This document shows positions 2,582 to 25,233 of a stretch of DNA of 64,000 nucleotides, piece by piece. The position numbers and the translations under genes are program-made. How positions within the stretch are numbered: position 1 is the stretch's first letter; every line of letters starts with the position of its first letter. The DNA lies in the NCBI GenBank assembly GCA_963666275.2, contig CAXXOA010000001.1, positions 288,001 to 352,000 on the forward strand, in the 5' to 3' direction. Source of the DNA: Oceanispirochaeta sp. (lineage in GTDB: Bacteria > Spirochaetota > Spirochaetia > DSM-2461). A model generated the notes under the pieces. It did no database searches. It saw nothing but the letters and a program-made list of their open reading frames with translations, and was not told the origin of the DNA.

Positions 2582-2627
2582 TTGACAAATATCCATTCCT
2601 TGTTTATCCTAGTGTTTTAGAACACTT
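2582..2627 (+). promoter_or_regulatory. sigma70 promoter of the GntR gene with adjacent palindromic operator
   Basis: TTGACA(2582-2587)-N17-TATCCT(2605-2610), then AGTGTTTTAGAACACT(2611-2626). Confidence 0.8.
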
Positions 2628-2638
2628 TGAGGTGAGAA

Positions 2639-3709
2639 ATGGATTTAATCATTGACCGGACAATAAGTATTCCTCCGTATCAGCAGATCGTGGGGCAGAT
2701 CCGGGAACAGATCGGAGGCGAACTCCTTCCTGAACACGCCGCACTGCCTTCGGCAAGGGAGATTGTTCAGAAAACCGGCGTCTCCCTGGCAACGGCTCAG
2801 AGGGTTCTCAATGAGCTGAAAAACGAGGGGCTTATCTATAGCCTCCCCGGAAAAGGGAGTTTTGTTTCTCCCTCCACGGCCTCCCTGCCTTCGGTGATTC
2901 ACATCTTTCTTCCCTCTGCGGGGCTTTCTTTCTTCATGGAAATCCTCAAGGGGATCAATGACGCTCTGGGAACCAGGAATATTGAACTGAAACTGCACAG
3001 CCTCAATACGGATAAACTGGTCTGGGGCTGGAAAACAATCGAAGAGCTGGAAGAGGCTGTGAAAAACAGAGAAGCCGTCATCTTTATAGAGGAAGCCTTC
3101 GACTCTGTCAGGGCCGCCTGTCTGAAAGCAGCGCGGCAGATCCCCTTCGTTACCATCGAGTGGGTTCTGGACGGAGCCTGTTCCATCATCAATGACTACA
3201 GGGAATCCTCCTATCATCTTATGGAATACCTTCACAGAGAGAAGAACTGCCGGTCCTTCCTGATCCTTAAGGGAAGGGACTATCAGTTCAATGCATCGGG
3301 AAAGCTGGCGGGTTTTACTTCCTACGCTGAAGATGCCGCTTTGAAAATACCCGGTGATATCCATTTCCTGGACACCGACTTCGATGCCTATACGGGGTAT
3401 GAATCGGTTTCCTCCTTTTTGAATTCAAACAAACTTCCCGATGCGATCTGCTGCGGCAACGACTACGAAGCCATCGGCGTTGTCGGGGCTCTGACCGAAA
3501 AGGGGTATCTTCCCGGACGGGATGTGCAGCTTATCGGTTACGGCGATATGACTGATAAAACAACCATGTACTTTCCTCTGACAACGGTAAGGCAGAATCT
3601 GGAGGAGATGGGACGGCGGGCTGTTCTGCAGCTCCTTGAAAAAGCCGCAGGGGAGAGCACCCCCGCCCAGGATGTGGTTCCCACCGAGTTGATTATCCGA
3701 AAAACATGA
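2639..3709 (+). CDS. GntR-family regulator with LacI-type sugar-sensing domain (AraR-like architecture)
   Basis: N-terminal GntR wHTH (PYQQI, LPSARE, GVS..T, GKGSFV); C-terminal DAI.CGND..A.G and PLTTVRQ. Confidence 0.9.
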   Translation: MDLIIDRTISIPPYQQIVGQIREQIGGELLPEHAALPSAREIVQKTGVSLATAQRVLNELKNEGLIYSLPGKGSFVSPSTASLPSVIHIFLPSAGLSFFMEILKGINDALGTRNIELKLHSLNTDKLVWGWKTIEELEEAVKNREAVIFIEEAFDSVRAACLKAARQIPFVTIEWVLDGACSIINDYRESSYHLMEYLHREKNCRSFLILKGRDYQFNASGKLAGFTSYAEDAALKIPGDIHFLDTDFDAYTGYESVSSFLNSNKLPDAICCGNDYEAIGVVGALTEKGYLPGRDVQLIGYGDMTDKTTMYFPLTTVRQNLEEMGRRAVLQLLEKAAGESTPAQDVVPTELIIRKT

Positions 3710-3735: not shown

Positions 3736-3781
3736 TTGACAAAGGAACTTTTTCCTTGTATTTTAGTGTTCTAAAACACAA
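3736..3781 (+). promoter_or_regulatory. sigma70 promoter of the kinase operon with a second operator copy
   Basis: TTGACA(3736-3741)-N17-TATTTT(3759-3764), then AGTGTTCTAAAACACA(3765-3780). Confidence 0.8.
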
Positions 3782-3812: not shown

Positions 3813-5312
3813 ATGCCGAAATACATTCTCAGCGTGGATTTGGGAACGACCAGTACAAAAACGGTTCTCTTTGATGATAAACTGAAGGTCGTTTCGTCTG
3901 CCAAAGCGGAATATCCGACCTTTTATCCCAGTCCGGGATGGGCGGAACAGGATGCCCATGACTGGTGGAAGGCCCTTGTCAGTACCTGCCGGGATGTTCT
4001 TGATAAAAGCGGTATAAACCCTTCTGATATAGCCGGGGTGGGTGTAGACTCCATGTCCAGTATGGCTCTTCCGGTGGATAAAGAGGGAATCCCCCTTCGC
4101 CGGGGGCTGCTCTGGCTGGACCGGCGGGCTCAGAAAGAATCGGACTGGATCAGGAAAACCTACGGAGATGTCCAGATCAGGATCAACAGCAACGATTCGG
4201 ATCCCTCCAACTTTGCCCCCAAAATCCTCTGGATGAAAAACAACGAAAAAGAAATCTATGACAGAACCCACATGTTTCTTCACTGCAACGGCTACCTCGT
4301 CAATCGATTAACAGGAAAAATGACTATGGATATCTCCGAGGCGGGGATGTCCCAGCTTTGCGAAATCCGCAGCGGGCAGTGGTCGGAGGAACTGATCCAT
4401 GCCAGCGGTATCGACCGGTCAAAACTGCCCGAGGTATTCGCCTGTACCGATGTGGTCGGGACTGTGACCCCTCAGGCGGCAAAGGAAACGGGACTTCCCG
4501 AGGGCACTCCCGTTATAGCAGGCGCCATGGACAATGTTTCCGCTACTCTGGGGCTGGGACTGCGTCATGACGGACAGGCCTATATTTCCGCGGGAACCGC
4601 AACCAACGCCGGAGCCTGTGTGGCTTCCGTTCCCTCTGACCCGAGCATGCTAAACTATCATCACGGGGTCCCCGGGCTCTACCTTGTAAACGGGGGAGTC
4701 GATTACGGCGGGGCCGGCCTCCGATGGTTCAAGGCTCTGATCGAAGAAGAGCGTTTTGAAGAGATAGACAAATTGGCCGAAGAAGCGGGGTATCAGGATG
4801 ACATCCTTCTCTATCTGCCCTATATGGTGGGACAAAGGGCTCCCCTGTGGGACCCTCACTCCCGGGCGGTGGCTTTCGGCATGAATCCCGATACCAGCCG
4901 GAAAGCCATGATCCGTATGATCATGGAGGGCATCGCCATGGGGGTCCGGAATGTGTACCGTCTTATGGAAGAGAAGGGCTATACCATTGAAGAGATCGTC
5001 ATGACCGGAGGCTGCGCCAACAGCCCCGTATGGACCCAGATTTTCTCGGACATCCTGGAGAAACACATCATCCTGCCCGGTGAAATGGATGTGGCTCCTC
5101 TTGGGACCGCCATTATGACCGCTGTGGGAGTGGGACTCTTTCCGGATTTCGATGCGGCTCTTGCTGTTCAGACAGTGAGAGCTTCCTATGATCCGGACCG
5201 GAAGAAGACTGCCTATTACCGGGATCTTTTCCAGGCATTTATCCATCTGTATGAAGCGGCCGGTCCGGTTTATGAAGAACTGGACCGGATCAGAACAAAA
5301 TATAAAGATTAA
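3813..5312 (+). CDS. FGGY-family carbohydrate kinase (xylulokinase-like)
   Basis: DLGTTSTK, GWAEQD, WLDRRA, PYMVG.RAP.WD, TGGCA; GGAGG RBS before the ATG at 3813. Confidence 0.9.
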   Translation: MPKYILSVDLGTTSTKTVLFDDKLKVVSSAKAEYPTFYPSPGWAEQDAHDWWKALVSTCRDVLDKSGINPSDIAGVGVDSMSSMALPVDKEGIPLRRGLLWLDRRAQKESDWIRKTYGDVQIRINSNDSDPSNFAPKILWMKNNEKEIYDRTHMFLHCNGYLVNRLTGKMTMDISEAGMSQLCEIRSGQWSEELIHASGIDRSKLPEVFACTDVVGTVTPQAAKETGLPEGTPVIAGAMDNVSATLGLGLRHDGQAYISAGTATNAGACVASVPSDPSMLNYHHGVPGLYLVNGGVDYGGAGLRWFKALIEEERFEEIDKLAEEAGYQDDILLYLPYMVGQRAPLWDPHSRAVAFGMNPDTSRKAMIRMIMEGIAMGVRNVYRLMEEKGYTIEEIVMTGGCANSPVWTQIFSDILEKHIILPGEMDVAPLGTAIMTAVGVGLFPDFDAALAVQTVRASYDPDRKKTAYYRDLFQAFIHLYEAAGPVYEELDRIRTKYKD

Positions 5313-5330
5313 CCTGTAAGGAGAATACAT

Positions 5331-6377
5331 ATGAAAGCAGCCGTACTGTACGGAGATAATGATATCCGTTATGAAGAGTGGGAAAAGCCCCAGGCCGGAC
5401 CCGGAGAGGTCCTTGTAAAAGTAAAAGAGTCGGGACTGTGCGGGTCCGATATCCCCCGGACCATCCACAGCGGAGCTCACTTTTATCCTATCGTCCTTGG
5501 CCATGAGTTTTCCGGAGAGATCGTTGCTTTGGGAGAGGGGGTCTCCACCCGTAAAGTGGGAGACCGCATTGCCTGTGCGCCGCTGATTCCCGACAGGAAT
5601 GATCCCCAGAGCCAGAAAGGCAACTATTCCCTCAGCAAGGGGTACAAGTTTATCGGCTCCCGTATTCAGGGGGGATGGGCCGAATACGTGGCCATGCCCT
5701 GGGAGAATACGATTATCCTCCCCGAATCTGTCAGTTATACCGAAGGGGCCTTCTTTGAGCCTATAACAGTCGCCCTTCATGCTCTGAATATCATGAATTT
5801 TCAGGGCGGGAAAGATGTGGCTATTACAGGCATGGGAACTATCGGCCTTTTGACCCTGCAGTGCGTCAGAGCCATGGGGGCCAGGAAAATCACTGTTTTT
5901 GATATTGATGAAGAAAGGCTGGAAGTCGCAAACGAGTACGGCGCCGACCTCTGCCTGAATACCCTGAAAGAGGGGTTTAAGGACGAAGCCCTAGCTTTTA
6001 CCGATGGCAATGGTTATGAGGTTTGCCTGGAAACCGGCGGGGTTCCCGTTACGGAAATCCTCTGTATGGAATTGGCCGCTCCCAAAGGGACGGTCATGTT
6101 TATCGGGACTCCCCATAAACCGGTTACCCTGCAGCCCCACGAGTTTGAATATATAAACAGGAAAGAGATCTTTGTGACCGGATCCTGGATGAATTACTCA
6201 GCCCCTTTTCCCGGATGGGAGTGGGAGATGGCTGTCTATCTGTTCAGTAAGGATCTGGTGAAAACAGAGAAGCTTATCGACAGGAAAATTCCCCTGAGTG
6301 AAGCCGCTTCGGCGGTGAACGATCTGACCATTCCGGGTGCGGTGAAGGGAAAGATCCTTTTTGACTGTGAAAAATGA
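5331..6377 (+). CDS. Zn-dependent hexitol(-phosphate) dehydrogenase, galactitol-1-phosphate 5-dehydrogenase-like
   Basis: GLCGSDIPR, HFYPIVLGHEFSG, G.GTIG, GSWMNYSAPFPG.EW (GatD-like). Confidence 0.8.
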   Translation: MKAAVLYGDNDIRYEEWEKPQAGPGEVLVKVKESGLCGSDIPRTIHSGAHFYPIVLGHEFSGEIVALGEGVSTRKVGDRIACAPLIPDRNDPQSQKGNYSLSKGYKFIGSRIQGGWAEYVAMPWENTIILPESVSYTEGAFFEPITVALHALNIMNFQGGKDVAITGMGTIGLLTLQCVRAMGARKITVFDIDEERLEVANEYGADLCLNTLKEGFKDEALAFTDGNGYEVCLETGGVPVTEILCMELAAPKGTVMFIGTPHKPVTLQPHEFEYINRKEIFVTGSWMNYSAPFPGWEWEMAVYLFSKDLVKTEKLIDRKIPLSEAASAVNDLTIPGAVKGKILFDCEK

Positions 6378-6395
6378 GAAAAGAGAGGAACAGTA

Positions 6396-7703
6396 ATGAG
6401 CGCAATCAATGATTTTCTGCAGCTAATGAAAGACAACAAAGAGGGAAAACCCCGGGGGATCTATTCGATCTGCTCGGCCCATCCCGATGTGATCAGAGCC
6501 AGTATGATCCAGGCTCTGGAAGACGGTTCCATCGTGCTGATCGAGTCCACAAGCAATCAGGTGGATCAGTTCGGCGGCTATACGGGCATGACTCCTCCCG
6601 AGTTTGTGAGCTATGTGAAAGACCTGGCCGGCGAAGTCTCTTTCCCCGAAGAGAAAATCCTTCTGGGAGGGGATCATCTGGGTCCCAATGCCTGGCAGAG
6701 CCTGCCGGCGGAAGAGGCCATGAAGAATGCCCGGGATCTGATCGAAGCCTATGTAAAAGCGGGGTATCAGAAAATCCATCTGGACGCCAGTATGTACTGC
6801 GCCGACGATGAAGGCGACAGGCATACTCCCCTGGCTGATGAGATTGTCTCCGCCCGGGCGGCAGAGCTCTGCGCCGTAGCCGAAGCGACCTGGGAGACCT
6901 GCTGCCAGGGGCAGCCTCAGCCTGTCTATATCATCGGAACGGAAGTGCCCATTCCCGGCGGCGCCCAGGAGGAGGAAGAGACCGTAACGCCTACCTCTTC
7001 TGCCGATGCGGCCCGGACCATCGAAGTCACAAAAGCGGCTTTTACTGCAAAGGGACTGAGCGACGCCTGGAGCCGGGTGATCGGCCTGGTGGTTCAGCCC
7101 GGTGTGGAGTTCGGAGACGATCAGGTTTTCCATTACGACAGCGCCGCCGCGGCGGATCTGAGCCGGATGATTGAGGGAACCGACCAGTTTGTCTACGAGG
7201 CCCATTCCACGGACTATCAGAGCGAAACCGGCCTGACCAGCCTTGTGAAGGACCATTACTGTATACTCAAAGTAGGCCCCTGGATGACCTTTGCCTTCCG
7301 GGAAGCCCTGTTTGCTCTGGCGGATATGGAAAAGGAGCTTCTGGGAGCATCGGGAGTTCAGCTCTCCCGGCTGAAGGAGACCCTGGAAGAGGTGATGCTG
7401 GACGAGCCGAAGTACTGGCAGAAGTACTACCCCGGCAGTGAAGGGGAGCAGCTTTTCAAACGGAAGTACAGCTTCAGCGACAGGAGCCGCTACTACTGGC
7501 CCGATAAAAGGCTCACCGCCTCTATTGAGCTTCTGAAGAAGAACCTGGATGGAAAGGGGATCCCCCTGAGTATGCTGAGCCAGTATCTGCCGAACCAGTA
7601 CGATGCGGTGCAGGAGGGAAAGATTGCCCTGAAGGCACAGGACCTTATTATCAGCCGGATCCGGGATGTGGTGGGAATCTACGCCCGGGCCTGCGGGTTT
7701 TAA
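6396..7703 (+). CDS. gatZ: GatZ/KbaZ-family protein (tagatose-6-phosphate 4-epimerase / aldolase accessory subunit)
   Basis: SICSAHP, NQVDQFGGYTGM, GGDHLGPN, IHLDASM, GTEVPIPGG, EAHSTDYQ, LKVGP, SDRSRYYW. Confidence 0.9.
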   Translation: MSAINDFLQLMKDNKEGKPRGIYSICSAHPDVIRASMIQALEDGSIVLIESTSNQVDQFGGYTGMTPPEFVSYVKDLAGEVSFPEEKILLGGDHLGPNAWQSLPAEEAMKNARDLIEAYVKAGYQKIHLDASMYCADDEGDRHTPLADEIVSARAAELCAVAEATWETCCQGQPQPVYIIGTEVPIPGGAQEEEETVTPTSSADAARTIEVTKAAFTAKGLSDAWSRVIGLVVQPGVEFGDDQVFHYDSAAAADLSRMIEGTDQFVYEAHSTDYQSETGLTSLVKDHYCILKVGPWMTFAFREALFALADMEKELLGASGVQLSRLKETLEEVMLDEPKYWQKYYPGSEGEQLFKRKYSFSDRSRYYWPDKRLTASIELLKKNLDGKGIPLSMLSQYLPNQYDAVQEGKIALKAQDLIISRIRDVVGIYARACGF

Positions 7704-7774: not shown

Positions 7775-9151
7775 TCAGCAGAATTTTGCGGGAAAATCTC
7801 GATTAAGCTGTATTGCATTGGTTCTGCACACTTCGGCATACCACCTGCCGCTGTCTTTTACATAGCGTTTTTCGCTCTCATAATCTGTGAAGACAATACC
7901 GAATCTTTTTGTAAATCCCAGAGACCATTCGAAATTATCAAGGAATGACCAGACAAAATATCCTTCCATTCTGACTCCCTCCTGGATCGCCTGCCAGACA
8001 GCGCCGGTATGACGGAATAAATAGTCAATTCGTTCCGGATCATGTACTTCTCCATTCTCCAGCAAATCCGGCAGGGGAGTTCCGTTTTCTGTTACCATCA
8101 GAACAGGATTATCATAATCTCTCTTTAATCGTTTCAGCAGATTATAGAGACCTTCCGCATTGTTTTCCCACTCTTCGTAATCCGAAGTGTGCATAAAAGG
8201 GTAGCGGACCTGACGGCATTTCAGAAAATTACCTCTGCTGTCATGACCGATGATACGCCTTGTATAGAAATTCACGCCCATGAAATCACTGTGAGCACTG
8301 ATATCTTTCATATCGCCGCTATGGATTTCAGGGGCATCCTGTCCGTACCACTCCATCATATCCTGCGGATAAGAGCCGTAATAGAGAGGGTCAAGGAACC
8401 AGCGGTTAAAGGCGCCGTCATGCCTGGCCGCAGCGGCCAGATCCCGGGGGGCTTCCGTGGCAGGTTCAATCCATTCCAGATTGTTTACGATCCCGGCTCT
8501 GGCGTCCCTGGAATTCTCCCTTATCACTGGAAGAGCCTTGCCATGGGCCAGGAGCATATGATGCGCTGTCTGAAGTGCTGTCTTCAAATCTTTGACTCCC
8601 GGAGCATGAGTACCATAGAGGTTACCTACAAAGGAGTATACCCAGGGTTCATTGTGGGTCATCCAGTTTTTGATGCGGTCTCCCAGGGCTTTCGTTACGG
8701 TTTCGGTGTATTGCAGATAGTAATTGACGGTTTCTCGATCAGCCCATCCTCCCCGGTCCTGTAGAAACTGGGGCAGATCCCAGTGAAAAAGTGTGGCATA
8801 GGGGGTGATCCCTTTTTCAAGCACGGTATCGATGAGCCTGGAGTAATAATCCAGACCTTCGGGGTTAAGACTTTTACAGTCCCGGCTCATTATCCGGGGC
8901 CAGGCAAGGGAAAAACGGTAGTGCCTGATATTCAAGTCCCTCATCAGAGTCAGATCGTCCCGGAAGTGATGAAAGTGATTACAGGTTACATCTCCGGTGG
9001 ATCTGTCATCGATATTACCGGGAGTATGAGAGAATGTATCCCAGATAGAAGGACTCCGTCCTCCTTCCTTTACTGCTCCCTCTATCTGGTAGGCGGCTGT
9101 GGCGGTTCCCCAAATAAAATGTTCAGGAAACTGAAATGTTCTATTGTGCAT
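7775..9151 (-). CDS. GH1 beta-glucosidase
   Basis: WGTATAAYQIEG, HWDLPQ, acid/base NEP, nucleophile TENG, DNFEW..G..KRFG. Confidence 0.93.
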   Translation of the reverse strand: MHNRTFQFPEHFIWGTATAAYQIEGAVKEGGRSPSIWDTFSHTPGNIDDRSTGDVTCNHFHHFRDDLTLMRDLNIRHYRFSLAWPRIMSRDCKSLNPEGLDYYSRLIDTVLEKGITPYATLFHWDLPQFLQDRGGWADRETVNYYLQYTETVTKALGDRIKNWMTHNEPWVYSFVGNLYGTHAPGVKDLKTALQTAHHMLLAHGKALPVIRENSRDARAGIVNNLEWIEPATEAPRDLAAAARHDGAFNRWFLDPLYYGSYPQDMMEWYGQDAPEIHSGDMKDISAHSDFMGVNFYTRRIIGHDSRGNFLKCRQVRYPFMHTSDYEEWENNAEGLYNLLKRLKRDYDNPVLMVTENGTPLPDLLENGEVHDPERIDYLFRHTGAVWQAIQEGVRMEGYFVWSFLDNFEWSLGFTKRFGIVFTDYESEKRYVKDSGRWYAEVCRTNAIQLNRDFPAKFC

Positions 9152-9180
9152 AGTCTGTCTTCCTTTTGGTTTGATATTGT

Positions 9181-10848
9181 TCAATTATCTTCAGAATCGG
9201 GCGAATAAAAAAATGAGTGGAATTCAGCCCATGCGGTTCTTCTGTCCAGATCGATCACGCACATCCCCGTAAAAGTTCCATCGAAGGCGCCCGGACCGTT
9301 ATTGGTAAACTCATCGGATAAAACCGTGGCATCATAAGTCCCGCCGATTCTTACGGGAGGACAGCCGGGTCGCGAATAGGAGAAATTCAGTGACTGCTTC
9401 CGCAAAGAGGCTGTTAAAGTCCAAGGTCCCGCTTCAGGCAAAGCTGTTCTGGCTTCTTCGTACTTTGAGCCGTTCAAACTGATCATCAGCCCCAGACAGG
9501 GAATGCCGAGAGTCTCGCTGTAATAGCGGCGCAGAAAATAGAAGGTCCTGCTGCCTGTCAGGAGGATGAGCCCTGCCATCTGTCTGCTGGCCACGGGCTG
9601 AAAATCGAGCACCGTTTCCATACGGCAGGAGAAATGCTGGATTCTACGGGCAATCAGGGAAAAATCATGGGACGAATAGGGGGAGTTCCTCCCTCTGAGA
9701 CTGAGGACTCCGGGGGTTCTGTCCAGAGAACACCATGTCTTTTCGGGCCTGTCTTTCAGACTGACAAATTCCACCGGCATTCGGCCTTCGGAAAAGCTGG
9801 TTCTGCCGCTGGCTGTGACATCAGTTGCATTGGTTTCCTTCATCATCAGATCTATTTTGTCCGAAGGGAAGGGCGGTGTCCGGGCCAGTTCGGGCCATCC
9901 CTCATGCCAGAGGATTTTCTGTACCGCCGTTTCACGGTTGAGTATACAGCGCTGCTGGGGCATGACTGGGCGGGCGCAGAGATGAAAGAGAAGGCTCTCT
10001 CCCTCTTCCGTATCTATGATCGATCCATGACCGGCTTTCTGAAGAGTCAGCAGGGGGTTGTAGAACCGGGGTTTTAAAAAATCAGGATCACTGTCTATTA
10101 CTCCTGGAGCGGGATCCGGGCGGGAGGTCAGGAGAGGACCCCGGGGCGAGTCCTCATAGGGGCCGGTAATACTCCTGGAGCGGGAGATTTTTACAGCATG
10201 TCCGTATCCTGTTCCCCCTTCTGCGGTGATCAGGTAGTAGTAACCCTCTCTTTTAATGATATGGGGGCCTTCGGTACAGCCGAACAGGGGATCTCCCCTG
10301 TAGAGTATGACGGATTCCCCTGTGAGCTTCCTTGATTCGGCATCAAATTCCTGAAGTATGATAGGACCCGGATGAGAGTATCCCTGCCTGAACTCCCAGG
10401 CCAGGTTCAGCAGCCAGGATCTGCCGTCCTCATCATGGAAAAGAGAGGGATCGAATCCGCTGGAATTCAGATACACCGGATCAGACCAGGGGCCTGTGAT
10501 CTCCGGGGAGGTTACCAGATAGTTGTTCAGATCAAAAAAAGAACTGCTCAGGGATTTTACATCCGTATATACAAGATAGAACAATCCGGTTCTATTGTTG
10601 AAACTAATCTGGGGAGCCCATATCCCGCAGGAATCGGGGTTGCCCCTAAGGTCGAGCTGCTCTTTTCTGTCGAGTAGATGCCCTTTGAGTGTCCAGTTTT
10701 TCAAGTCCCTCGAGTGATAGAGGGGGACTCCGGGAAACCAGTTGAATGAACTGGTTATGATATAATAGTCCCGGCCGACACGGATAGCCGATGGATCGGC
10801 ATTAAAACCGGGAAGTATGGGATTTTTGATTGTGAGAATCTTTTTCAT
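9181..10848 (-). CDS. GH43 beta-xylosidase/arabinofuranosidase with C-terminal beta-sandwich
   Basis: NPILPGFNADPS, WAP, GFDPSLF, EGPH, AEGGTG..H. Confidence 0.9.
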   Translation of the reverse strand: MKKILTIKNPILPGFNADPSAIRVGRDYYIITSSFNWFPGVPLYHSRDLKNWTLKGHLLDRKEQLDLRGNPDSCGIWAPQISFNNRTGLFYLVYTDVKSLSSSFFDLNNYLVTSPEITGPWSDPVYLNSSGFDPSLFHDEDGRSWLLNLAWEFRQGYSHPGPIILQEFDAESRKLTGESVILYRGDPLFGCTEGPHIIKREGYYYLITAEGGTGYGHAVKISRSRSITGPYEDSPRGPLLTSRPDPAPGVIDSDPDFLKPRFYNPLLTLQKAGHGSIIDTEEGESLLFHLCARPVMPQQRCILNRETAVQKILWHEGWPELARTPPFPSDKIDLMMKETNATDVTASGRTSFSEGRMPVEFVSLKDRPEKTWCSLDRTPGVLSLRGRNSPYSSHDFSLIARRIQHFSCRMETVLDFQPVASRQMAGLILLTGSRTFYFLRRYYSETLGIPCLGLMISLNGSKYEEARTALPEAGPWTLTASLRKQSLNFSYSRPGCPPVRIGGTYDATVLSDEFTNNGPGAFDGTFTGMCVIDLDRRTAWAEFHSFFYSPDSEDN

Positions 10849-10852
10849 GGGA

Positions 10853-11683
10853 CTAACCCTTTACTGATCCGGCAGTGACCCCGGCAATAATCCGCTTTGA
10901 AAAAATAAAATATAGAATAATGGGGATAACCGCTACGATAACCATACAGGCAAACTGTACCGCATAGTCCGAGGCATATTCCCCTTCAAAGCGGATGATG
11001 GAAAAGGGAAGCGTCCTTTTGGTTTCAGTCGCCAGATAGGTATTAGCCATAATAAACTCATTCCAGCTATTGATGAACGCCATGATTCCCACAGTCACAA
11101 ATCCGGGTTTGGCCATTGGAGCAATGATCCTCAGAAGGATCGTTCCGAGACCCGCACCGTCCAGATAAGCCGATTCCTCCATGGCATAGGGTAGGGAATG
11201 GAGAAAACCTGTGAACATTAGTACACTGAAAGCAAGAAAGAATGCTGTATAGGGAATAATCAGTCCTAACCGCGTATCAATAAGGCCGAATCGCTGAAAC
11301 CAGACAAAGTTGGGAAGCAGAGTCGTATGTATCGGTATAACCATTCCCAGCAGGACAAAATTGTAAATAACTTTTCTCAGTTTCCATCTCATACGGCTGC
11401 AGGCGTATGCTATGGTAAAAGAGAGAAACAGAATCAGCAGGATCGAAAAGCTTACCACAATGACGCTGTTTAAGAGGTACTGGGGAATCCGTCCGTCCGT
11501 CCAGGCTCTCAGATAGTTCCCCCATTGGGGAGTTTCGGGAATATCAAAAAGCTTCTGACCGAAAAGATTGGAACTCTTCTGAAGTGAGTAGTTGAACAGC
11601 CAGAAAAGGGGGAACAACTGGGCAAGAGCTATGAGTATAAGAAAGATAAAGATTATAATCTGTCCGATGGATAGTTTTTTCAT
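10853..11683 (-). CDS. Carbohydrate ABC transporter permease
   Basis: EESAYLDGA loop, WNEF, C-terminal G.T.GSVKG. Confidence 0.93.
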   Translation of the reverse strand: MKKLSIGQIIIFIFLILIALAQLFPLFWLFNYSLQKSSNLFGQKLFDIPETPQWGNYLRAWTDGRIPQYLLNSVIVVSFSILLILFLSFTIAYACSRMRWKLRKVIYNFVLLGMVIPIHTTLLPNFVWFQRFGLIDTRLGLIIPYTAFFLAFSVLMFTGFLHSLPYAMEESAYLDGAGLGTILLRIIAPMAKPGFVTVGIMAFINSWNEFIMANTYLATETKRTLPFSIIRFEGEYASDYAVQFACMVIVAVIPIILYFIFSKRIIAGVTAGSVKG

Positions 11684-11686
11684 GCC

Positions 11687-12580
11687 TTACTCCTCAAGAT
11701 TCTCATTGGCCCTGGAGAGGTATTTCTGGGCCAGCAGGGTGATAGTCAGAGCAACGATCACAAATACAATAGAAATTGCATTCCCATAGCCGTAGCGGGA
11801 GTAGCGGAAGGCCTGTTCATAGAGGTGGTAGGCCACGAACTGAGTCAGGTTTCCCGGGCCGCCTTCGGTTGAAAGCAGAACAATTTCCATCTGCTTCAGG
11901 CAGGATGTTATGTCTATAATTATGACAGCCTGAATGACAGGCAGCATGTAGGGTATTATCACTGACGTATAACGTCTAACCGGTCCTGCCCCGTCCATAA
12001 CTGCGGCCTCGTGAAGTTCTTTCGGGACTGTTGTCAGACCTGAGTAATAGAACAGAAGCGCCCAGCCGAAGCCGTGCCAGACTGTTATGAAAATTATAGA
12101 TCCCAGAGCTGTTTTCGGATCGCTTATCCAGCTGTGCTGCCAGCTTTCCAGCCCTACAGATGCAAGAAGCTTGTTTATAAGTCCGTAATTGGGATTCATA
12201 ATATTGGTCCACAGCTTTGTTATCACCACCACAGTTAAAATGGCGGGTATAAAATATATGGTTCTCAGAAAAAGTGAGTATTTTTCTTTCAATTGATTCA
12301 GAACAGACGCAAGGATAAATGCCAGGGGATTCTGTATGAATACGGTTACGATCAGCAACAGGAATGCGTTCAGAAGGGAACGCCAGAATGTGGCGTCCTG
12401 CAGGATTACTTCCCTGTAGTTTGCCAGGCCTGTGAAGTCTCTGGCCCCGAAACCCGACCAGTCGGTAAAACTGTAATACACACTCAGAAGTATGGGCGCC
12501 ACTATGGCAAAGAGCATAATCAGCACTCCCGGGCCGACAAGCCAGAAAATGGTTCTCTTACTTGTAAATAATTGGTTCAT
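11687..12580 (-). CDS. Carbohydrate ABC transporter permease
   Basis: SFTDW, GLANY, EAAVMDGA loop, GGP, YGYG.A. Confidence 0.93.
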   Translation of the reverse strand: MNQLFTSKRTIFWLVGPGVLIMLFAIVAPILLSVYYSFTDWSGFGARDFTGLANYREVILQDATFWRSLLNAFLLLIVTVFIQNPLAFILASVLNQLKEKYSLFLRTIYFIPAILTVVVITKLWTNIMNPNYGLINKLLASVGLESWQHSWISDPKTALGSIIFITVWHGFGWALLFYYSGLTTVPKELHEAAVMDGAGPVRRYTSVIIPYMLPVIQAVIIIDITSCLKQMEIVLLSTEGGPGNLTQFVAYHLYEQAFRYSRYGYGNAISIVFVIVALTITLLAQKYLSRANENLEE

Positions 12581-12611
12581 TCTTTTAGCCTTTGAAAATC
12601 TTTAAAATAGA

Positions 12612-12635
12612 CTTCCCTGCATTTCTGCAGGGAAG
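12612..12635. other. Intercistronic hairpin after the solute-binding protein gene (likely mRNA stabiliser)
   Basis: CTTCCCTGCA-TTTC-TGCAGGGAAG, a perfect 10-bp stem. Confidence 0.6.
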
Positions 12636-12645
12636 CAGAGGCCGG

Positions 12646-13941
12646 TTATTTAAGAGCTTTCTGGAGAGCTTCGTCCAGAGAGGTGCAGAACTGCTGAGGA
12701 GTAATAATACCGGCAGCAAGGTCTTTGCAGAGTTTTTGATGGGATTCCTTGAAAGCCGCATCCAGCATGTCCAGAGAAGTTGTCCCGCTGGTTGCGCGTG
12801 CGGAACCGCTGATACTCAGAAGATCTTTTGCCAGTTGATTGTCATCGTCGTTGGGTTCGATAGCCTGGGCGGGAAAACCGGCCTGAAGATCCCACATGAT
12901 TTTAGGATATTCCCGGGCATATAATTCCAGATAGTCCATGGCAAGGTCCTCATAATCGCTGTCGGCTTTGACTATATAGTTTCCGCCGTACCAGGCAATC
13001 AGATTGTTTCTCTGATCCTCTCTGCCGGCTATCACTGGGAATTTGGCGGCTCTGACATTTGTACGAAACCTTTCCGAGAAGTTTTCATCGCTGGCCATAC
13101 CCATTTCCCAGGGGCCCATCAGATACATGGCTGCCTGTTCCTGACCGAAAAGGTTCCGGGAGGCGCCATAATCCGTGGTGACAAGATCATTCCTGAAAAT
13201 ACCGCTTTCATAGAAAATTTCCTGGTAGAGCTCGGCAGCTTTCAGGAATTCAGGATCCGTGAAATGCCTCTTTCCCTGGAGGGCTTCAGACATGACACTG
13301 TAGTCTCCCGTGACTCTCCAGAGAATATTGTCGTAACTGATACTCAGGGGCCAGCCGTCTTTTCCGTCAGTAACCGCCGGGATGTATCCGGCTGCGGAGA
13401 GTGCAGCCGCTGCGGACTTCATTTCGGTAAATGTGGTAGGGACGTCTATTCCCACTTCGTCAAAAATCGCTTTATTATAAAACACAACCCAGAAGTCTGC
13501 CGTCAGGGGAATTCCGTACAGTTCTCCGCCGTAAACATTTCCCTCCAGAGCGCCGGGCATCCAGGGCAGGGACGCAAAACGCCTTCTGTCCAGGGGTTCC
13601 ACCATCCTACTGTCAACTAGTGGTTTCAGCAGTGTGGAAAAACTCCAGTATTTCATAATATCCGGAAGCTGTCCGGCAGTGGCGTATATCTTGATTTTCT
13701 GCTGATAGGGCTGATCCTGATAGCTTTCCACATCAAATGATACTTCCGGATGCTGTTTAATGAATTCTCTGTTGATGGCTTCCGCTACCGCACCGAGCCC
13801 TACAGTTCTATCGGGCAGATTATCCCCCATTTTAATAACCACCGAATCACCGGCGGCATCACTCTGACCCGAAGCAAAAAGAAACCCTGTCGAAAGCAGC
13901 AGAACCAGTGAAAAGACTAGTGTTTTCATCCGATACTTCAT
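12646..13941 (-). CDS. Sugar ABC transporter solute-binding protein
   Basis: Signal ending LFASGQS; G.LPDI, YGIP, FYNK.IF, AAMY.MG.W; AGGAG RBS. Confidence 0.9.
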   Translation of the reverse strand: MKYRMKTLVFSLVLLLSTGFLFASGQSDAAGDSVVIKMGDNLPDRTVGLGAVAEAINREFIKQHPEVSFDVESYQDQPYQQKIKIYATAGQLPDIMKYWSFSTLLKPLVDSRMVEPLDRRRFASLPWMPGALEGNVYGGELYGIPLTADFWVVFYNKAIFDEVGIDVPTTFTEMKSAAAALSAAGYIPAVTDGKDGWPLSISYDNILWRVTGDYSVMSEALQGKRHFTDPEFLKAAELYQEIFYESGIFRNDLVTTDYGASRNLFGQEQAAMYLMGPWEMGMASDENFSERFRTNVRAAKFPVIAGREDQRNNLIAWYGGNYIVKADSDYEDLAMDYLELYAREYPKIMWDLQAGFPAQAIEPNDDDNQLAKDLLSISGSARATSGTTSLDMLDAAFKESHQKLCKDLAAGIITPQQFCTSLDEALQKALK

Positions 13942-14073
13942 TGAAATTCTCCTTTGTGTCACTGTTTATCCCAAGGCGGAAAACAGTAGAAATGATTTGA
14001 TCTGTTTTCAGATTAACACTGGATTTCCTATCCAGAAATGAATCTGGTTATGGTTTCTTGATCTTTTGAATGA

Positions 14074-15243
14074 TTAGTTCTTCCCTTGGGAGGCATACCT
14101 GTTGGGGGTCATTCCTGTGGCTTTTTTGAAAATCCTTGAAAAGTGCTCTACATTGGGATATCCGACATTTTCACTGATTTCATAAACTTTAAGATTGGTT
14201 GCCAGAAGAAGTTCCTTTGCCTGATCCACCCTTACTTTCGTCACATAATCTCTGAAAGTGATTCCCGTTTCTTTATGGAACTGAGAACTCAGATGGGGTT
14301 TGCTGACTTCGACAAAGGAGCTGACTTCCTCCAGGGACAAGGTGGAGGAGGCAAAGTTTTTTTTGATGAATTTTTTCGCTTTTCTTATAATCCTACTCTC
14401 GATGGCCGGGAGGGAGCGTACATAACTGTATTGTCCGGGAATATCCTGGAGGGTTTCGCACTGACAGCTTATAGCATAATCCAGAGAGATATCCATACCA
14501 TTCTGTATGATTTCCAAAAAGTCCCGGCAAAAGGATTCGCAGGTGTTTATTGCGGATTCCAGGCCCTTTTCGACAGAGATTAGAAAAAAAAACTCGCCCT
14601 TTTCTGTCAGAAAAAATGTAACGGTCATCTCTCTTTTTTTCAGAAACTGGGATGCCTGCAGTTTGAGCATTTCCCTCTGAGTTTCCTGAATCGTCTCATT
14701 GCCCCACATATAGCAGAGACGGATCGGCGGCTGGATCCGGATCCCCAGATCTGCCAGGACAGGGAGGGTTATTTCAGGATTCCGGTTTTCAAAAAGGTCC
14801 ATAAGGAGCCTTTGTTTCAGATAGTTCAGGTCTTTTGTATTTAGGGCTGATGTACTGATACCGGAGGGGGAAATCTCATCCTTTTTTCTATTCAGAAGGT
14901 CAAGAAGAGTCGTTTCATCCAGATCTGATTTTAGAATGTAATCAAGAGCTCTCAGTTGAAATGCTTCTCTCACATAGGAATAGTTGTCATTGGCACTGAG
15001 GACTATGACATGGGGAGGGTTCTCCCATTTTTCAAGTTCTCTTAGAAATTCCAGTCCGTCCATGACGGGCATTTGAATGTCCAGCAGGATCAGATCCACA
15101 GTATTATTCCGAAGTTGAAACAGGGCGTCTCTCCCGTCAGAGGCTTCACAGGAAAAGGTAAATCCGTGTTCTTCCCAGTTCAGAAAAGACTGGATCGAAG
15201 CTCTGACAAGGGGTTCATCATCTACGATCATCAGGGATAACAT
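14074..15243 (-). CDS. YesN-like response regulator (receiver + AraC HTH)
   Basis: IVDDE, LDIQMP.MDG, DYILK; C-terminal AraC (VGY.N..HFSR.FKK.TG.TP). Confidence 0.92.
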   Translation of the reverse strand: MLSLMIVDDEPLVRASIQSFLNWEEHGFTFSCEASDGRDALFQLRNNTVDLILLDIQMPVMDGLEFLRELEKWENPPHVIVLSANDNYSYVREAFQLRALDYILKSDLDETTLLDLLNRKKDEISPSGISTSALNTKDLNYLKQRLLMDLFENRNPEITLPVLADLGIRIQPPIRLCYMWGNETIQETQREMLKLQASQFLKKREMTVTFFLTEKGEFFFLISVEKGLESAINTCESFCRDFLEIIQNGMDISLDYAISCQCETLQDIPGQYSYVRSLPAIESRIIRKAKKFIKKNFASSTLSLEEVSSFVEVSKPHLSSQFHKETGITFRDYVTKVRVDQAKELLLATNLKVYEISENVGYPNVEHFSRIFKKATGMTPNRYASQGKN

Positions 15244-16996
15244 CAGAAATCTCCTTATTCAGCGGCAGGTAAATATCCGTGCGGGTATAAAAATCCGGAC
15301 GGCTTCTCATTAAAAGACCGTATTCCTCTCCGTAATTCAGCTTGATTCGTCTATTCACATTATATATACCAATTCTCGTGAGGGTTCCCGCAGGGGAGGA
15401 GTCGGGTTTAACAGGGAAAGGATTTTCTTTCAGATCCACCCCGCACCCGTTATCACATATTCTCAAAAGCAGTTTCTTTTCCTTTCCTATGGCGTGGATT
15501 TGTATCAGTATATAGCCTTTCCCCTTTTTCCGGGAAAATCCATGGATAATAGAATTTTCAATGATAGGCTGAAGCAGCATTTTCAGAATGGAATAGGATG
15601 CCAGTTCCGGGGCTATGGAAAAGCGGAGCTCAATAGGAGTACTGAAGCGTACCTTCATAATGTGGACATAGCTCTCCAGGGATTTCATCTCTTCCTGCAG
15701 AGTCGTCTTATTTCCCTCTCCCCGAAAACTGTCATTTATGATCTGCATTAACGAAGATGTCATATTTTTAATGTTTTCATTTTTTTTCACCACAGCCATA
15801 AGTCGGATGGCATTCAGAGTATTGGCAACAAAATGAGGATTGATCTGATACTGTAGAGCCTGAAGTTCAAGAAGGCTCTTTTCCCTGTCTATACTGGTCT
15901 GTTTTTCTGTCAGTTCCCTTACCTGATTTATCATTCTGTTGAAACTGTGAAACAGATGATTCAATTCCGGCTGATCCGGAACCTGAACCCTGACAGCATA
16001 ATCTCCTTTTTCTACAAGCTGCATTTTTTCAATAAGCATGTTGAGAGGAGATATCATGTTATGAAAAAAGAAAAACGTATACAGAATAAAAAAGATGAAC
16101 AGAACAGCAAAAATAAGATAGAAGAAGCGCCGAATCCTGTAAAAGGGTTGGAGAAAGGCATGAATATCTATGACATGATGGAGAGTCCAATCGGTACTCT
16201 CTATTGTAGAGGTCAGAACCAGCCATCTTGATCTATCTGTTTTTCCATTACTTTCAGGATTTTCCAGAGAGTCCACCATGCTATTTCCTTGCGGTGCCAG
16301 AATAACATTTCCCTCAGCATCGGTCAGATAGGAAAACTGCTGAAGTGAGGAGCTGCTGTAAATCTTATTGAGTATTTTTATCTTATAGGCAAACAGGACT
16401 TTTTCAATGGAAAGCCCGTTTTCTGTCGGCCCCGGATGAACCGCCAGATAGAGGAGGGGATCTTCGGATTCCCCGGGACTATTCCTGTAGATATTGAAAA
16501 AATCGTCCGAGATATGGACTACACCTCTGGTTTCTTCAACTGATTTCAGCAGACGTTCATCCGGAAGCGGATTCTCCGGCAGATTCGCAATCATTGGGAA
16601 GTTCCGGAACAGAAAGACTGGTTTGTTCCTTGTATAGACGAAAACAATTCCCACTTTACTTGTGTAAAGGAACAGGCGGCTCAGTTCCAGATCCAGAGCT
16701 TCGCTCTGTCTGTATATATCCTGCGGATCCACGGCGCTGTCGTAAAGGTCGCAGACCACTTTAAAGTTATCATTATGGATCAGAGCACTGGAGAGTATAG
16801 AGACTGATGCGATTTCATTGTTGAGATTGGATGCTATCTGATTTACTGTTTCCTGCATTTGGATCTTTGTCAGATCACTCTGATACCGGCTGTATGTGAC
16901 ACTAGTGATGAAGGTGAAGATAAAAACGGGGGCAATGACAAGCAGGAGGAAACTGAGTAGGTATTTGATGGATAGAGTGTGAATCTTCAGGTTCAT
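15218..16996 (-). CDS. YesM-like sensor histidine kinase
   Basis: Two TM segments, HAMP, LQ.QINPHF..NTL, LQP.IEN.I.HG, DNG.G. Confidence 0.92.
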   Translation of the reverse strand: MNLKIHTLSIKYLLSFLLLVIAPVFIFTFITSVTYSRYQSDLTKIQMQETVNQIASNLNNEIASVSILSSALIHNDNFKVVCDLYDSAVDPQDIYRQSEALDLELSRLFLYTSKVGIVFVYTRNKPVFLFRNFPMIANLPENPLPDERLLKSVEETRGVVHISDDFFNIYRNSPGESEDPLLYLAVHPGPTENGLSIEKVLFAYKIKILNKIYSSSSLQQFSYLTDAEGNVILAPQGNSMVDSLENPESNGKTDRSRWLVLTSTIESTDWTLHHVIDIHAFLQPFYRIRRFFYLIFAVLFIFFILYTFFFFHNMISPLNMLIEKMQLVEKGDYAVRVQVPDQPELNHLFHSFNRMINQVRELTEKQTSIDREKSLLELQALQYQINPHFVANTLNAIRLMAVVKKNENIKNMTSSLMQIINDSFRGEGNKTTLQEEMKSLESYVHIMKVRFSTPIELRFSIAPELASYSILKMLLQPIIENSIIHGFSRKKGKGYILIQIHAIGKEKKLLLRICDNGCGVDLKENPFPVKPDSSPAGTLTRIGIYNVNRRIKLNYGEEYGLLMRSRPDFYTRTDIYLPLNKEISDVIPDDRR

Positions 16997-17366: not shown

Positions 17367-17735
17367 TTATGACTCCTTCTGTTCATCCGGCTTCTCCCCG
17401 GATGAATCGCTTTTATTTATTATTGGGGACGTATCCTCTTTCTTTTCAGTTAAATCATTCGGGTTAAAGGATAAATCCTTTTTAAGGGCTGTATCAAAAT
17501 TCGCGACTTCGCTCCGCATTCTTGCGTTCATCGCCCGGATCTCTTTCATCTCTTCATCGATCCCGATCTCTTTTTCAATATTCATGGCTTCTTTCTTCAC
17601 CATGGTATAATAGTAGTAGACCCTTGCCCATACTTTTCCGATTTTCCGGAAGATCATCGGCAGTTCCTGGGGTTTTACAAATATGAGCAGCAAAGCTGCA
17701 ATTATCAGTATTTCCTGAAAACCTATTCCGTTCAT
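17367..17735 (-). CDS. tatB: Twin-arginine translocase TatB
   Basis: IGFQEILII..LL....P.ELP...R.IGK; lies between tatC and tatA. Confidence 0.85.
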   Translation of the reverse strand: MNGIGFQEILIIAALLLIFVKPQELPMIFRKIGKVWARVYYYYTMVKKEAMNIEKEIGIDEEMKEIRAMNARMRSEVANFDTALKKDLSFNPNDLTEKKEDTSPIINKSDSSGEKPDEQKES

Positions 17736-19749: not shown

Positions 19750-19754
19750 AAACC

Positions 19755-21854: not shown

Positions 21855-21866
21855 GGTTTACTCCTC

Positions 21867-22517: not shown

Positions 22518-22541
22518 AATATCTCCTCCATTGTTTGTAGT

Positions 22542-23531: not shown

Positions 23532-24698
23532 TTACGGAATCATAATTCCCTTGAGGTAATCTTCGTCTCCCATCTTTTTCAGAGTATCCAGAAGACCGTC
23601 CAGATCGGTTTTATGGGTAAACATTTTATGGAGAGGGATTGTTTTGTGGCGCTTCAGAATCTGAAACGCCTTGTCAAAGGCTCCGGGATGGTTGGCGCTC
23701 ATTCCGAGGATCCTGGCATGTTTGCTGCAGATCAGTCTGGCCGGATCAAATGAGATCTCTTTGCCCTGGTTCACCATGTTTCCCACTTCCACATAGGTTC
23801 CCAGGCGGCGCATCATTTCTAGTCCGTCAATAAAGGTTTCCACGTTATTGGAGCACTGCATAACCACGTCGGCCCCTCCGCCAGTCAGGTCTTTTACCAT
23901 TTCGATCCGCTGGGAACGGCTGTATTTATGATAGTCGATGACATGATCCACCCCGGCGATCTCTTCTGAAAGATCCAGCCTTTTCTGACGGCTTCCTATC
24001 ATAATCACCTGCTGGGCTCCCATAAGGCGGCAGTAGAGGGCTGTCAGTACTCCCACCTGGCCGGAACCGATGACAACCACCCGGGAGCTTGTTGTGAGGC
24101 CCTGTTCCATGATCCCCGGGCCAGTCAAAGCCAGTTCCACTGCCCTGACCGCTACAGCCATGGGGTCAAGGAGAACCGCAATTTCCGATGGCATATCCTC
24201 CGGAACTTTCCAGAGATAGGTTTCGGGGAATACATAGGTATATTCGGCGAAGCCGCCCATGAAATGGGGCCATCGGCTTATATCTGAACTGATGGTTTCC
24301 TTTCCTTCCAGCCCCAGTTTTGAATAGGGGACTCCGTATACAAAAGAGCTGTCGCAGGTGGTGCAGGTTCCCGGTCTGTTGCTCAGACATCCGGGGCATT
24401 TTCCGCAGGTTATCCAGGGGTACAGAACGACCCTGTCTCCCTCTTTGACGGGGCCCTCATAAATGTTCAGAGAACCCGCTGCTTTCGAGCCCATGCCGAT
24501 TATGGTCCCTGTGACCTCATGGCTCATTATGGCGGGGTAGGGCGGCGTATCCTGAATCAGATGACCATCGGTACCGCAGATACCGGCGGCATCCACTTTT
24601 AAGAGGAGGCCGTCCTCCTTTACCTGGGGAACATCCAGTTCACGAATCTCTATGTCGTATTTTCCCAGCCAGACAGCGGCTTTTCCTTTTTTCTGCAT
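23532..24698 (-). CDS. Zn-dependent medium-chain alcohol dehydrogenase/reductase
   Basis: GICGTD.H, SHE.TG, structural Zn CGKCPGC..C, G.G.VG. Confidence 0.88.
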   Translation of the reverse strand: MQKKGKAAVWLGKYDIEIRELDVPQVKEDGLLLKVDAAGICGTDGHLIQDTPPYPAIMSHEVTGTIIGMGSKAAGSLNIYEGPVKEGDRVVLYPWITCGKCPGCLSNRPGTCTTCDSSFVYGVPYSKLGLEGKETISSDISRWPHFMGGFAEYTYVFPETYLWKVPEDMPSEIAVLLDPMAVAVRAVELALTGPGIMEQGLTTSSRVVVIGSGQVGVLTALYCRLMGAQQVIMIGSRQKRLDLSEEIAGVDHVIDYHKYSRSQRIEMVKDLTGGGADVVMQCSNNVETFIDGLEMMRRLGTYVEVGNMVNQGKEISFDPARLICSKHARILGMSANHPGAFDKAFQILKRHKTIPLHKMFTHKTDLDGLLDTLKKMGDEDYLKGIMIP

Positions 24699-24736: not shown

Positions 24737-24770
24737 TTGACAAATTTGTTCTAGTGTTTTAAAACACTAG
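24737..24770. promoter_or_regulatory. Perfect 20-bp palindromic operator overlapping the fucU promoter
   Basis: TTGACA(24737-24742); CTAGTGTTTTAAAACACTAG(24751-24770) covers the expected -10. Confidence 0.85.
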
Positions 24771-24798: not shown

Positions 24799-25233
24799 AT
24801 GCTGAAGGGTATACCTAAAATACTCTCTCCCGAGCTTGTAAAAGTTCTGATGGAGATGGGACATGGAGACGAAATTGTCATATCCGACGGAAACTTCCCC
24901 GCTGTTACATGCGGACAGCAGGTGGTCAGGGCCGACGGGCATGGTGTTCCCGAAATTCTGGATGCGATCCTGACCCTTTTTCCCCTGGATCCCTATGGTG
25001 AGGAAGTTCCCGTCTCACTGATGGAGGTGGTTCCCGGAGATACAGTGGAAACCCCCATCTGGGATGAGTACAAGGCCATTGTCAAAAAACACAACTCTGA
25101 TTTCAAGGACTTCAACTTTATCGAGCGCTTTGAATTCTACGAAAGAACCAAAAAAACTTTTGCTGTTGTAGCTACCGGTGAAGCCGCCCTTTATGCTAAT
25201 ATTCTTATCCGTAAAGGGGTTGTGGTCGACTGA
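24799..25233 (+). CDS. fucU: RbsD/FucU-family mutarotase (L-fucose mutarotase-like)
   Basis: MLKGI..ILSPEL...L.EMGHGDEIVI.D.NFP, ERF.FYE, TGE.ALYAN.L..KGV. Confidence 0.9.
   Translation: MLKGIPKILSPELVKVLMEMGHGDEIVISDGNFPAVTCGQQVVRADGHGVPEILDAILTLFPLDPYGEEVPVSLMEVVPGDTVETPIWDEYKAIVKKHNSDFKDFNFIERFEFYERTKKTFAVVATGEAALYANILIRKGVVVD

Follow-up and report, generated by a model that had tools for sequence, protein, structure and literature searches.

A predicted phosphotransferase-independent reductive route from L-galactose to fructose-6-phosphate in Oceanispirochaeta

Introduction

The Escherichia coli gat pathway consists of the GatABC phosphotransferase system (PTS), GatD, PfkA and GatY/GatZ. 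A 64,000-nucleotide stretch of the genome of the anaerobic-type spirochaete Oceanispirochaeta sp. (the window; G000:C1:288001-352000, where G000 is this genome, 5.27 Mb and 97% complete) encodes an FGGY-family kinase, a GatD-like dehydrogenase and a GatZ-family protein at positions 3813 to 7703. The question raised by this locus is which sugar the three enzymes would serve with neither a galactitol PTS nor a GatY aldolase beside them. We predict, with a probability of about 0.6, that a regulon composed of a regulator, the kinase-gatD-gatZ operon, fucU and a distant aldo-keto reductase (AKR) gene catabolizes L-galactose without a PTS, through galactitol, to fructose-6-phosphate.

In the predicted route, the mutarotase FucU would open or anomerize L-galactopyranose, the AKR would reduce L-galactose to meso-galactitol, and the FGGY kinase would phosphorylate the end of galactitol that gives L-galactitol-1-phosphate (= D-galactitol-6-phosphate). 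Stereochemically, L-galactitol-1-phosphate is the substrate of GatD. The GatD-like enzyme would then oxidize C5 to yield D-tagatose-6-phosphate, and GatZ would epimerize C4, converting D-tagatose-6-phosphate to fructose-6-phosphate, at an overall cost of one ATP and in a redox-neutral manner. Because a D-ketose phosphate has to be reached, L-galactose would have to be reduced before being phosphorylated. We infer every substrate of this scheme, the order of its steps, the direction of the AKR reaction and the cofactors. A PTS-independent sequence from aldose through hexitol, hexitol phosphate and tagatose-6-phosphate to fructose-6-phosphate had been put forward in a preliminary description of the window, and the replacement of GatZ by a PfkB kinase and GatY in other genomes, described below, supports it.

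A kinase-gatD-gatZ operon without a PTS

The operon, which is real, consists of three genes:

3813..5312, + strand: FGGY kinase of an unnamed subfamily, predicted galactitol (hexitol) kinase, 499 amino acids (family profiles)
5331..6377, + strand: GatD-like Zn dehydrogenase, predicted hexitol-1-phosphate 5-dehydrogenase, 348 amino acids
6396..7703, + strand: GatZ/KbaZ-family protein, predicted tagatose-6-phosphate 4-epimerase (TIGR02810; residue alignment)

Family profiles and structure matches confirmed all three assignments, which had been proposed before. The kinase scored below all NCBIfam cut-offs (12 listed families); the named FGGY families with which it was compared include XylB, GntK, GlpK, FucK, RhaB, AraB and LsrK, and the best of them was XylB, at 327 bits versus 380 required. 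Its start was placed at ATG 3813 in preference to TTG 3756 on the basis of the 499-amino-acid orthologues and the ribosome-binding site. By kinase identity (81 to 88%), the named relatives are Oceanispirochaeta and other Spirochaetales, and a plasmid search returned a single match at 34% identity.

The dehydrogenase reached 320.9 bits, below the NCBIfam GatD equivalog cut-off of 550, and GatD was still its best family. By sequence, its best solved structure was E. coli GatD (4A2C, E 3e-79; next 7e-42), which was also the top match of a fold search with a TM score of 0.91 and 42% identity. Residues C37, H58, E59, E143, R43, R111, W286 and Y289 were invariant over 11 aligned rows and the same in 4A2C. 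The two invariant arginines presumably bind phosphate; no paper on the phosphate-binding residues of GatD was found in the literature searched. The catalytic Zn ligands are retained and the four structural-zinc cysteines substituted; these cysteines are gone from the GatD-like proteins of the window and of two of the loci compared below (L060 and L090) and retained in the other cluster copies.

These properties bear on a different order of reactions, in which the AKR would form galactitol, the Zn dehydrogenase would oxidize it to D-tagatose and the FGGY protein would be a tagatose 6-kinase. Xylulokinase, the best family of the kinase, acts on a ketose, and Pontiella desulfatans uses D-tagatose with no known genes identified in the available part of its description. 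The dehydrogenase, on the other hand, matches GatD, an enzyme of phosphorylated polyols, far better than it matches dehydrogenases of free polyols (E 3e-79 versus 4e-37), and it keeps the GatD motifs, including both arginines. Elsewhere in G000, a tagatose-kinase-like PfkB gene is paired with a gatZ of its own. We consider this order quite unlikely.

The GatZ protein passed its profile (TIGR02810, 596.6 bits versus a cut-off of 568.8). In a hand-counted alignment to 2FIQ, seven of seven residues (C20, E44, D87, H88, E171, H257 and K279) were identical; these are listed in the available part of PMC11907403, where the fructose-6-phosphate/tagatose-6-phosphate C4-epimerase function of E. coli GatZ and KbaZ is derived from genetics and modelling.

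None of the 52 window open reading frames (ORFs) scanned encodes a PTS or aldolase protein, in agreement with the earlier statement that gatY and PTS genes are lacking here. At the level of the genome, galactitol PTS IIC (PF03611) gave 0 matches in G000, with the control found in 5 of 14 genomes, and GatY gave no match in G000, its sole PF01116 match being a fructose-bisphosphate aldolase (over the PRK07084 cut-off). A canonical gat route completed by partners elsewhere in the genome, a possibility raised in the preliminary description, was rejected on these grounds.

A shared operator links the operon to fucU and a distant reductase gene

The elements of the predicted regulon, apart from the operon itself, are as follows:

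2582..2610, + strand: sigma-70-like promoter of the regulator gene (-35 TTGACA, 17 nt, -10 TATCCT; consensus scan, 10 of 12 positions)
2610..2627, no strand: operator palindrome 1, abutting the -10 box of the regulator promoter (palindrome scan)
2639..3709, + strand: regulator with a GntR helix-turn-helix and a LacI-type sugar-binding domain (Pfam PF00392 and PF13377), predicted repressor of the regulon
3736..3764, + strand: sigma-70-like promoter of the operon (-35 TTGACA, 17 nt, -10 TATTTT; consensus scan)
3764..3781, no strand: operator palindrome 2, before the operon (palindrome scan)
24752..24769, no strand: operator palindrome 3, belonging to fucU (palindrome scan)
24799..25233, + strand: FucU-type L-fucose/L-galactose mutarotase, regulon member (NCBIfam; operator 3)
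G000:C1:744265-745299, - strand: AKR, core reductase, outside the window (operator, distribution)

The three operator sites of the window correspond to 6 strand matches versus 0.07 expected, and 0 of 100 shuffles reached 6. A matrix scan of the genome returned four sites, the fourth of which lies about 450 kb away, 26 bases upstream of the AKR gene, and scored 23.3 bits versus a maximum of 20.7 in three shuffles of C1. We compared 38 genomes of the order, which are kin and in part incomplete, so that the counts given here are descriptive and not independent. The exact operator pattern was found in 11 of them, all within the genus; a reversed-pattern control gave 0 matches in the genus and 1 across all 38 genomes. 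In all 10 genus genomes with an AKR, the operator stood ahead of the AKR match by at most 150 bases; the exact operator preceded fucU in 7 of 11 genus genomes, and relatives also carry an operator upstream of the regulator. A regulator of the same domain type was seen beside the cluster at L056, L061, L062 and L078 (L numbers denote loci).

Since two operators abut the -10 box of promoter matches of the TTGACA-17 type, these data suggest that the GntR/LacI-hybrid regulator represses the regulon. The regulator promoter is a consensus match only, from a region with 6 such sites overall versus 3.8 expected. Near operator 3, a TTGACA is found at 24737-24742 (+). A promoter scan at fucU gave no full site, and neither there nor at the AKR gene did such scans show a site overlapping the operator. 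In another genome an imperfect operator precedes a sugar ABC transporter operon (L005:11253), which could be the regulon transporter there. In genome G003 a natural deletion (L198:5385-7182, contig G003:C5) has removed the kinase gene together with the greater part of gatD and gatZ. What remains is the regulator gene with two operators and a short remnant made of the gatD and gatZ tails; G003 has no AKR match.

The conserved reductase is an aldo-keto reductase

The kinase was present in 19 of the 38 genomes. The AKR was found in 22, comprising all 19 kinase-positive and 3 of the 19 kinase-negative genomes, and the GatD-like protein was distributed in much the same way (21 of 38; 19/19 and 2/19, respectively). 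FucU (E<=1e-35) occurred in 13 of 19 kinase-positive and 2 of 19 kinase-negative genomes. The closest solved structures to the AKR are aldehyde and aldose reductases (AKR4/AKR1A/aldose reductase). In an alignment of ten AKRs, with 63 to 67% identity to the first, the Asp-Tyr-Lys-His tetrad (D63, Y69, K97 and H128) was invariant. The protein carries IPFS at a position where IPKS is usual.

The preliminary description had assigned the reductase step to another enzyme, encoded next to fucU:

23532..24698, - strand: Zn-dependent oxidoreductase, not a core member (distribution; operator position)

This enzyme was found in 8 of the 38 genomes, within the genus only. All 8 are kinase-positive, and in G000 and G009 the gene diverges from fucU around the operator, which are points in its favor. 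These two genomes are the only ones in which it adjoins fucU. In the six other carriers it lies 6 to 27 kb from fucU with no exact operator nearby, and six genus genomes (four of these loci read) have an exact operator before fucU without a neighboring orthologue of the Zn enzyme. Of the 19 kinase-positive genomes, 11 gave no orthologue; among these are all of the 9 that lie outside the genus and two genus genomes of 95% completeness. The best PDB match of the protein was an uncharacterized Zn alcohol dehydrogenase (E 3e-30). Distribution and operator position thus led us to reject this candidate, and that it should be the aldose reductase of the route is very improbable. Of the operator-linked locus described earlier, the fucU part holds, the mutarotase gene having its own operator, while the Zn enzyme is operator-linked by position only.

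A conserved five-enzyme module

We scanned 17 distant loci. Genomes of the order contributed 7 of them, and a set of 40 metagenome loci (L066-L105, 38 to 73% identity) contributed the other 10, which were picked by length. Genes were annotated by hand. For L094 and L096 the coverage was a list of ORFs, with a single protein of L094 in addition; the choice of ORFs is incomplete for L075 and L080, which are GC-rich, and one ORF of L090 was left out. The AKR was found in 9/17 loci, FucU in 8/17, and the GatD-like protein together with GatZ in 10/17. In 6/17 (L061, L062, L073, L078, L090 and L098), kinase, GatD, GatZ, FucU and AKR are encoded in a single cluster. The window FucU passes the NCBIfam equivalog cut-off (142.3 bits versus 141), and so did six of six FucU copies tested from distant clusters, with 177 to 217 bits. 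The group of kinases at 44 to 54% identity includes proteins of Pontiella, Pleomorphomonas and Anaeromyxobacter. The operon belongs to a conserved five-enzyme module; gene identities, the operator, the signature of co-regulation, co-occurrence and clustering are established.

A variant of the module was found in Lachnospirales. We searched 151 genomes of the order to which a Lachnospiraceae genome belongs; at the cut-off applied, the AKR was detected in 11 and the kinase in 3, and each of these 3 kinase matches lay within about 4 kb of an AKR match. Four AKR loci were read, each of which encodes an FGGY kinase, a GatD-like protein, FucU and a GatY-type aldolase; the kinase is under the subfamily cut-off in two of the four. 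In three of them, a PfkB/LacC-like kinase and the GatY-type aldolase replace GatZ, and in the fourth there is GatY alone. This exchange of GatZ for PfkB and GatY is the strongest argument that the dehydrogenase yields D-tagatose-6-phosphate, with its C1 hydroxyl free. A pentose route (D-arabinose via D-arabitol phosphate to xylulose-5-phosphate) was rejected, since it would have no need for GatZ or for PfkB and GatY.

The same substitution bears on L-fucose, which might be the main or an added substrate of the same chemistry: L-fucitol, L-fucitol-1-phosphate, 1-deoxy-D-tagatose-6-phosphate and 1-deoxy-D-fructose-6-phosphate would follow one another, and transaldolase or fructose-6-phosphate aldolase (FSA) would then release hydroxyacetone and glyceraldehyde-3-phosphate. 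FucU and FucP are families named after fucose, a transaldolase-family gene is found near the kinase in L064, L065 and L075, fucose-isomerase genes adjoin the cluster in L097 and L214, and two Pontiella species use L-fucose with no fucK identified in the available part of the sources. A 1-deoxy sugar could not, however, be phosphorylated at C1, as the PfkB and GatY pair in three of four Lachnospirales loci would require; FucI is encoded in 16 of the 19 kinase-positive genomes, G000 included; and the kinase-bearing Pontiella agarivorans did not grow on L-fucose, according to the accessible portion of its description. Overall, we regard L-fucose as an unlikely explanation for the module.

At one distant locus (L097:5560-20606), genes resembling fucK, fucA and fucI and one for an iron-containing alcohol dehydrogenase are interspersed among those for the kinase, GatD-like protein, GatZ, FucU and an ABC transporter. 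In G009, an IS110 transposase gene lies between kinase and gatD (L056:13351-14565).

Evidence for L-galactose as the substrate

L-galactose had been named as a possible substrate in the preliminary description, and the genes around the clusters lend support to it as the leading candidate. FucP was above its cut-off in L068 and L073. Next to the L062 cluster, a GH29 enzyme is encoded whose best match is the exo-alpha-L-galactosidase 7LJJ (E 2e-136, versus 1e-74 for the next group). 7LJJ acts in the breakdown of porphyran, from which an alpha-L-galactosidase releases L-galactose, as described in the available part of PMC12316285. Close orthologues of the L062 GH29 were found in 5 of the 38 genomes, all kinase-positive, with one weaker match in a kinase-negative genome; at L195 and L196, the neighbors of the L-galactosidase-like GH29 were uninformative. 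L-galactose also occurs in other algal and plant glycans. In L090, the cluster is preceded by genes for an anhydro-L-galactonate cycloisomerase (E 1.5e-147) and an aldehyde dehydrogenase; genes like that of the cycloisomerase were found in 4 kinase-positive genomes and 1 kinase-negative genome. Between the anhydro-galactose genes and the AKR, L090 and L094 encode a protein of about 1150 amino acids with no Pfam match at E 1e-12 (L090:4845-8288, L094:4845-8288). The competing sugars L-fucose and D-galactose have candidate genes of their own in G000, namely, FucI and galactokinase-family genes. The P. agarivorans kinase shares 78% identity with the L073 kinase, and agar supports growth of this organism, while L-fucose and D-arabinose do not, in the part of its description that was available.

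D-galactose, free galactitol or another aldohexose such as D-altrose or D-talose would fit much of the same enzymology, and for D-galactose the order could be kinase first, giving galactose-6-phosphate, followed by an aldose-6-phosphate reductase. The AKR matches the aldose and aldose-6-phosphate reductases 7S5F (E 5e-60) and 7S5I (E 2e-52) about as well as it matches other AKRs, a GalM-type epimerase is encoded in L213 and L214, and the L-galactose-releasing enzymes searched for are missing from G000. Yet FucU, FucP and the L-galactosidase-like and anhydro-L-galactose neighbors point to the L-galacto series, G000 already has its galactokinase-family genes, and galactitol is not used by P. desulfatans, as stated in the available part of its description. 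Such a substrate is unlikely.

Several findings weigh against L-galactose and the route predicted for it. From galactitol onward, D- and L-galactose are indistinguishable, and the GalM-type epimerases of L213 and L214 would suit D-galactose. L-galactosidase-like GH29 enzymes occur in just 5 of the 19 kinase-positive genomes, and the L062 sulfatase is not closest to L-galactose-6-sulfatase. A search of G000 found no GH29, GH95-type domain or anhydro-L-galactonate cycloisomerase match, and the genome scan of G000 found no transporter with an operator, so that this genome itself does not explain where L-galactose would come from or how it would be taken up. The window FucU exceeds its cut-off by just 1.3 bits, the AKR family is much wider than the kinase (7952/7999 candidates), and some AKRs of this clade, such as yeast Ara1, oxidize L-galactose instead. 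At L097, no AKR was found among the ORFs scanned; an iron-containing alcohol dehydrogenase or FucI may supply the entry step there. For P. agarivorans, the observation covers only the kinase. P. desulfatans, in which the kinase and an AKR match are present, uses L-fucose and D-tagatose and not galactitol or agar, with no fucK identified (PMC7356697, available part). This growth profile keeps both L-fucose and a tagatose kinase alive as explanations. Taken together, the genes make L-galactose the best-supported substrate, and probably the true one.

Comparison with known routes

In its later steps the module resembles the E. coli gat pathway, with which it shares the GatD-like and GatZ-family proteins, a presumptive tagatose-6-phosphate intermediate and, in the Lachnospirales variant, GatY and PfkB. 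It is not a member of that pathway, because G000 lacks a match to either PTS IIC or GatY; the hexitol phosphate would here arise from an intracellular AKR and an FGGY kinase, with FucU upstream.

The galactitol-altritol route of Agrobacterium and Sinorhizobium employs a polyol dehydrogenase, a PfkB tagatose kinase and a GatZ-type tagatose-6-phosphate epimerase. It is likewise PTS-independent, with a stand-alone GatZ yielding fructose-6-phosphate. There, the free polyol is oxidized and tagatose is then phosphorylated, whereas here the FGGY kinase would act before the GatD-type oxidation and an aldose would enter; the window operon has the FGGY and GatD-like pair, not a PfkB tagatose kinase and a free-polyol dehydrogenase. 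The Agrobacterium-type route is resembled by the second gatZ locus of G000 (C2:1240413). This second gatZ, 95% identical to the first, ends an operon (G000:C2:1234897-1241720; L002:6898-13721) that contains a monosaccharide ABC transporter, a tagatose-kinase-like PfkB (305 of 420 bits) and a LacI regulator, has no operator and is a candidate for D-tagatose use. The operon looks like an Agrobacterium-type tagatose locus, the gatZ of which would have been recently duplicated or converted.

Kinase-first routes with FGGY enzymes are known for other polyols, glycerol (GlpK) and, in Brucella, erythritol (EryA). As predicted here, the FGGY kinase acts on a prochiral or meso polyol before the dehydrogenase does; the differences are the six-carbon polyol, a dehydrogenase of the medium-chain (MDR) type and an upstream aldose reductase.

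The bacterial L-galactose routes found in print are oxidative. In Phocaeicola vulgatus and Luteolibacter LG18, L-galactose is degraded via L-galactonate, D-tagaturonate, D-altronate and 2-keto-3-deoxygluconate (KDG) (PMC12632266, available part). The proposed substrate is the same, and in both cases oxidation at C5 gives a D-tagato-configured intermediate. The published route begins with oxidation at C1 and leaves through the Entner-Doudoroff pathway, in contrast to reduction at C1 and entry at fructose-6-phosphate here. A redox-neutral entry at this point would suit fermenters. In the open literature, with most subscription journals outside its scope, our search found no reductive L-galactose route, galactitol kinase or L-galactose reductase; the available main text of PMC8579813 mentions the FucR regulon, and tagatose and galactitol are not mentioned in it.

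We would give even odds to a broader proposal, namely, that a reductive L-galactose route distinct from the published oxidative one exists across Spirochaetota, Kiritimatiellae and Lachnospirales and includes two activities not found in the literature searched, a bacterial L-galactose reductase and an enantioselective galactitol kinase. In this proposal L-fucose may also be processed by the module, giving a 1-deoxy-ketose phosphate, and O-methylated algal galactoses may be handled by a cobalamin-methyltransferase variant. If the predicted L-galactose route is real, it would provide a function for an FGGY subfamily now labelled xylulokinase and for a large unnamed bacterial AKR family, and would give rare-sugar biotechnology a PTS-free way of making tagatose-6-phosphate as well as a galactitol kinase.

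Other observations

A histidine phosphatase gene adjoins the kinase in 6 of the 17 distant loci; of the 19 kinase-positive genomes 14 encode the enzyme, as do 9 of the 19 without the kinase. G000 encodes a 67% orthologue of this kinase-flanking enzyme (G000:C1:826845-827453; L193), at which no operator was found by eye or in the genome scan. It was rejected as a core member because of its loose distribution and the lack of an operator; a repair function, acting on galactitol phosphate of the wrong enantiomeric form, is conceivable. In L072:317-14321, L055, L057 and L080, a variant of the kinase is accompanied by one or two URO-D-family proteins, to which L072 adds a B12-binding protein, a GatD-like protein, a PfkB and a class II aldolase. 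These loci possibly serve anaerobic O-demethylation of a methylated galactose or hexitol.

The remaining features of the window lie on the - strand. Convergent with the operon and directly downstream of it, 7775-16996 encodes GH1 and GH43 proteins, a carbohydrate ABC transporter and a two-component system; no operator link was found. The genes at 17367-22601 encode an aldehyde:ferredoxin oxidoreductase, a 4Fe-4S subunit, FdhD and a TatC of their own, which suggests that this is an exported tungsten or molybdenum enzyme. At 53472-54476, a TctC tricarboxylate-binding protein is apparently split into ORFs of 154 and 169 amino acids (profile positions 4-108 and 125-251), by a frameshift, a stop codon or a sequencing error. 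Finally, the 1829-amino-acid ORF at 55608-61097 combines biotin carboxylase, biotin carrier and carboxyltransferase domains in one chain.

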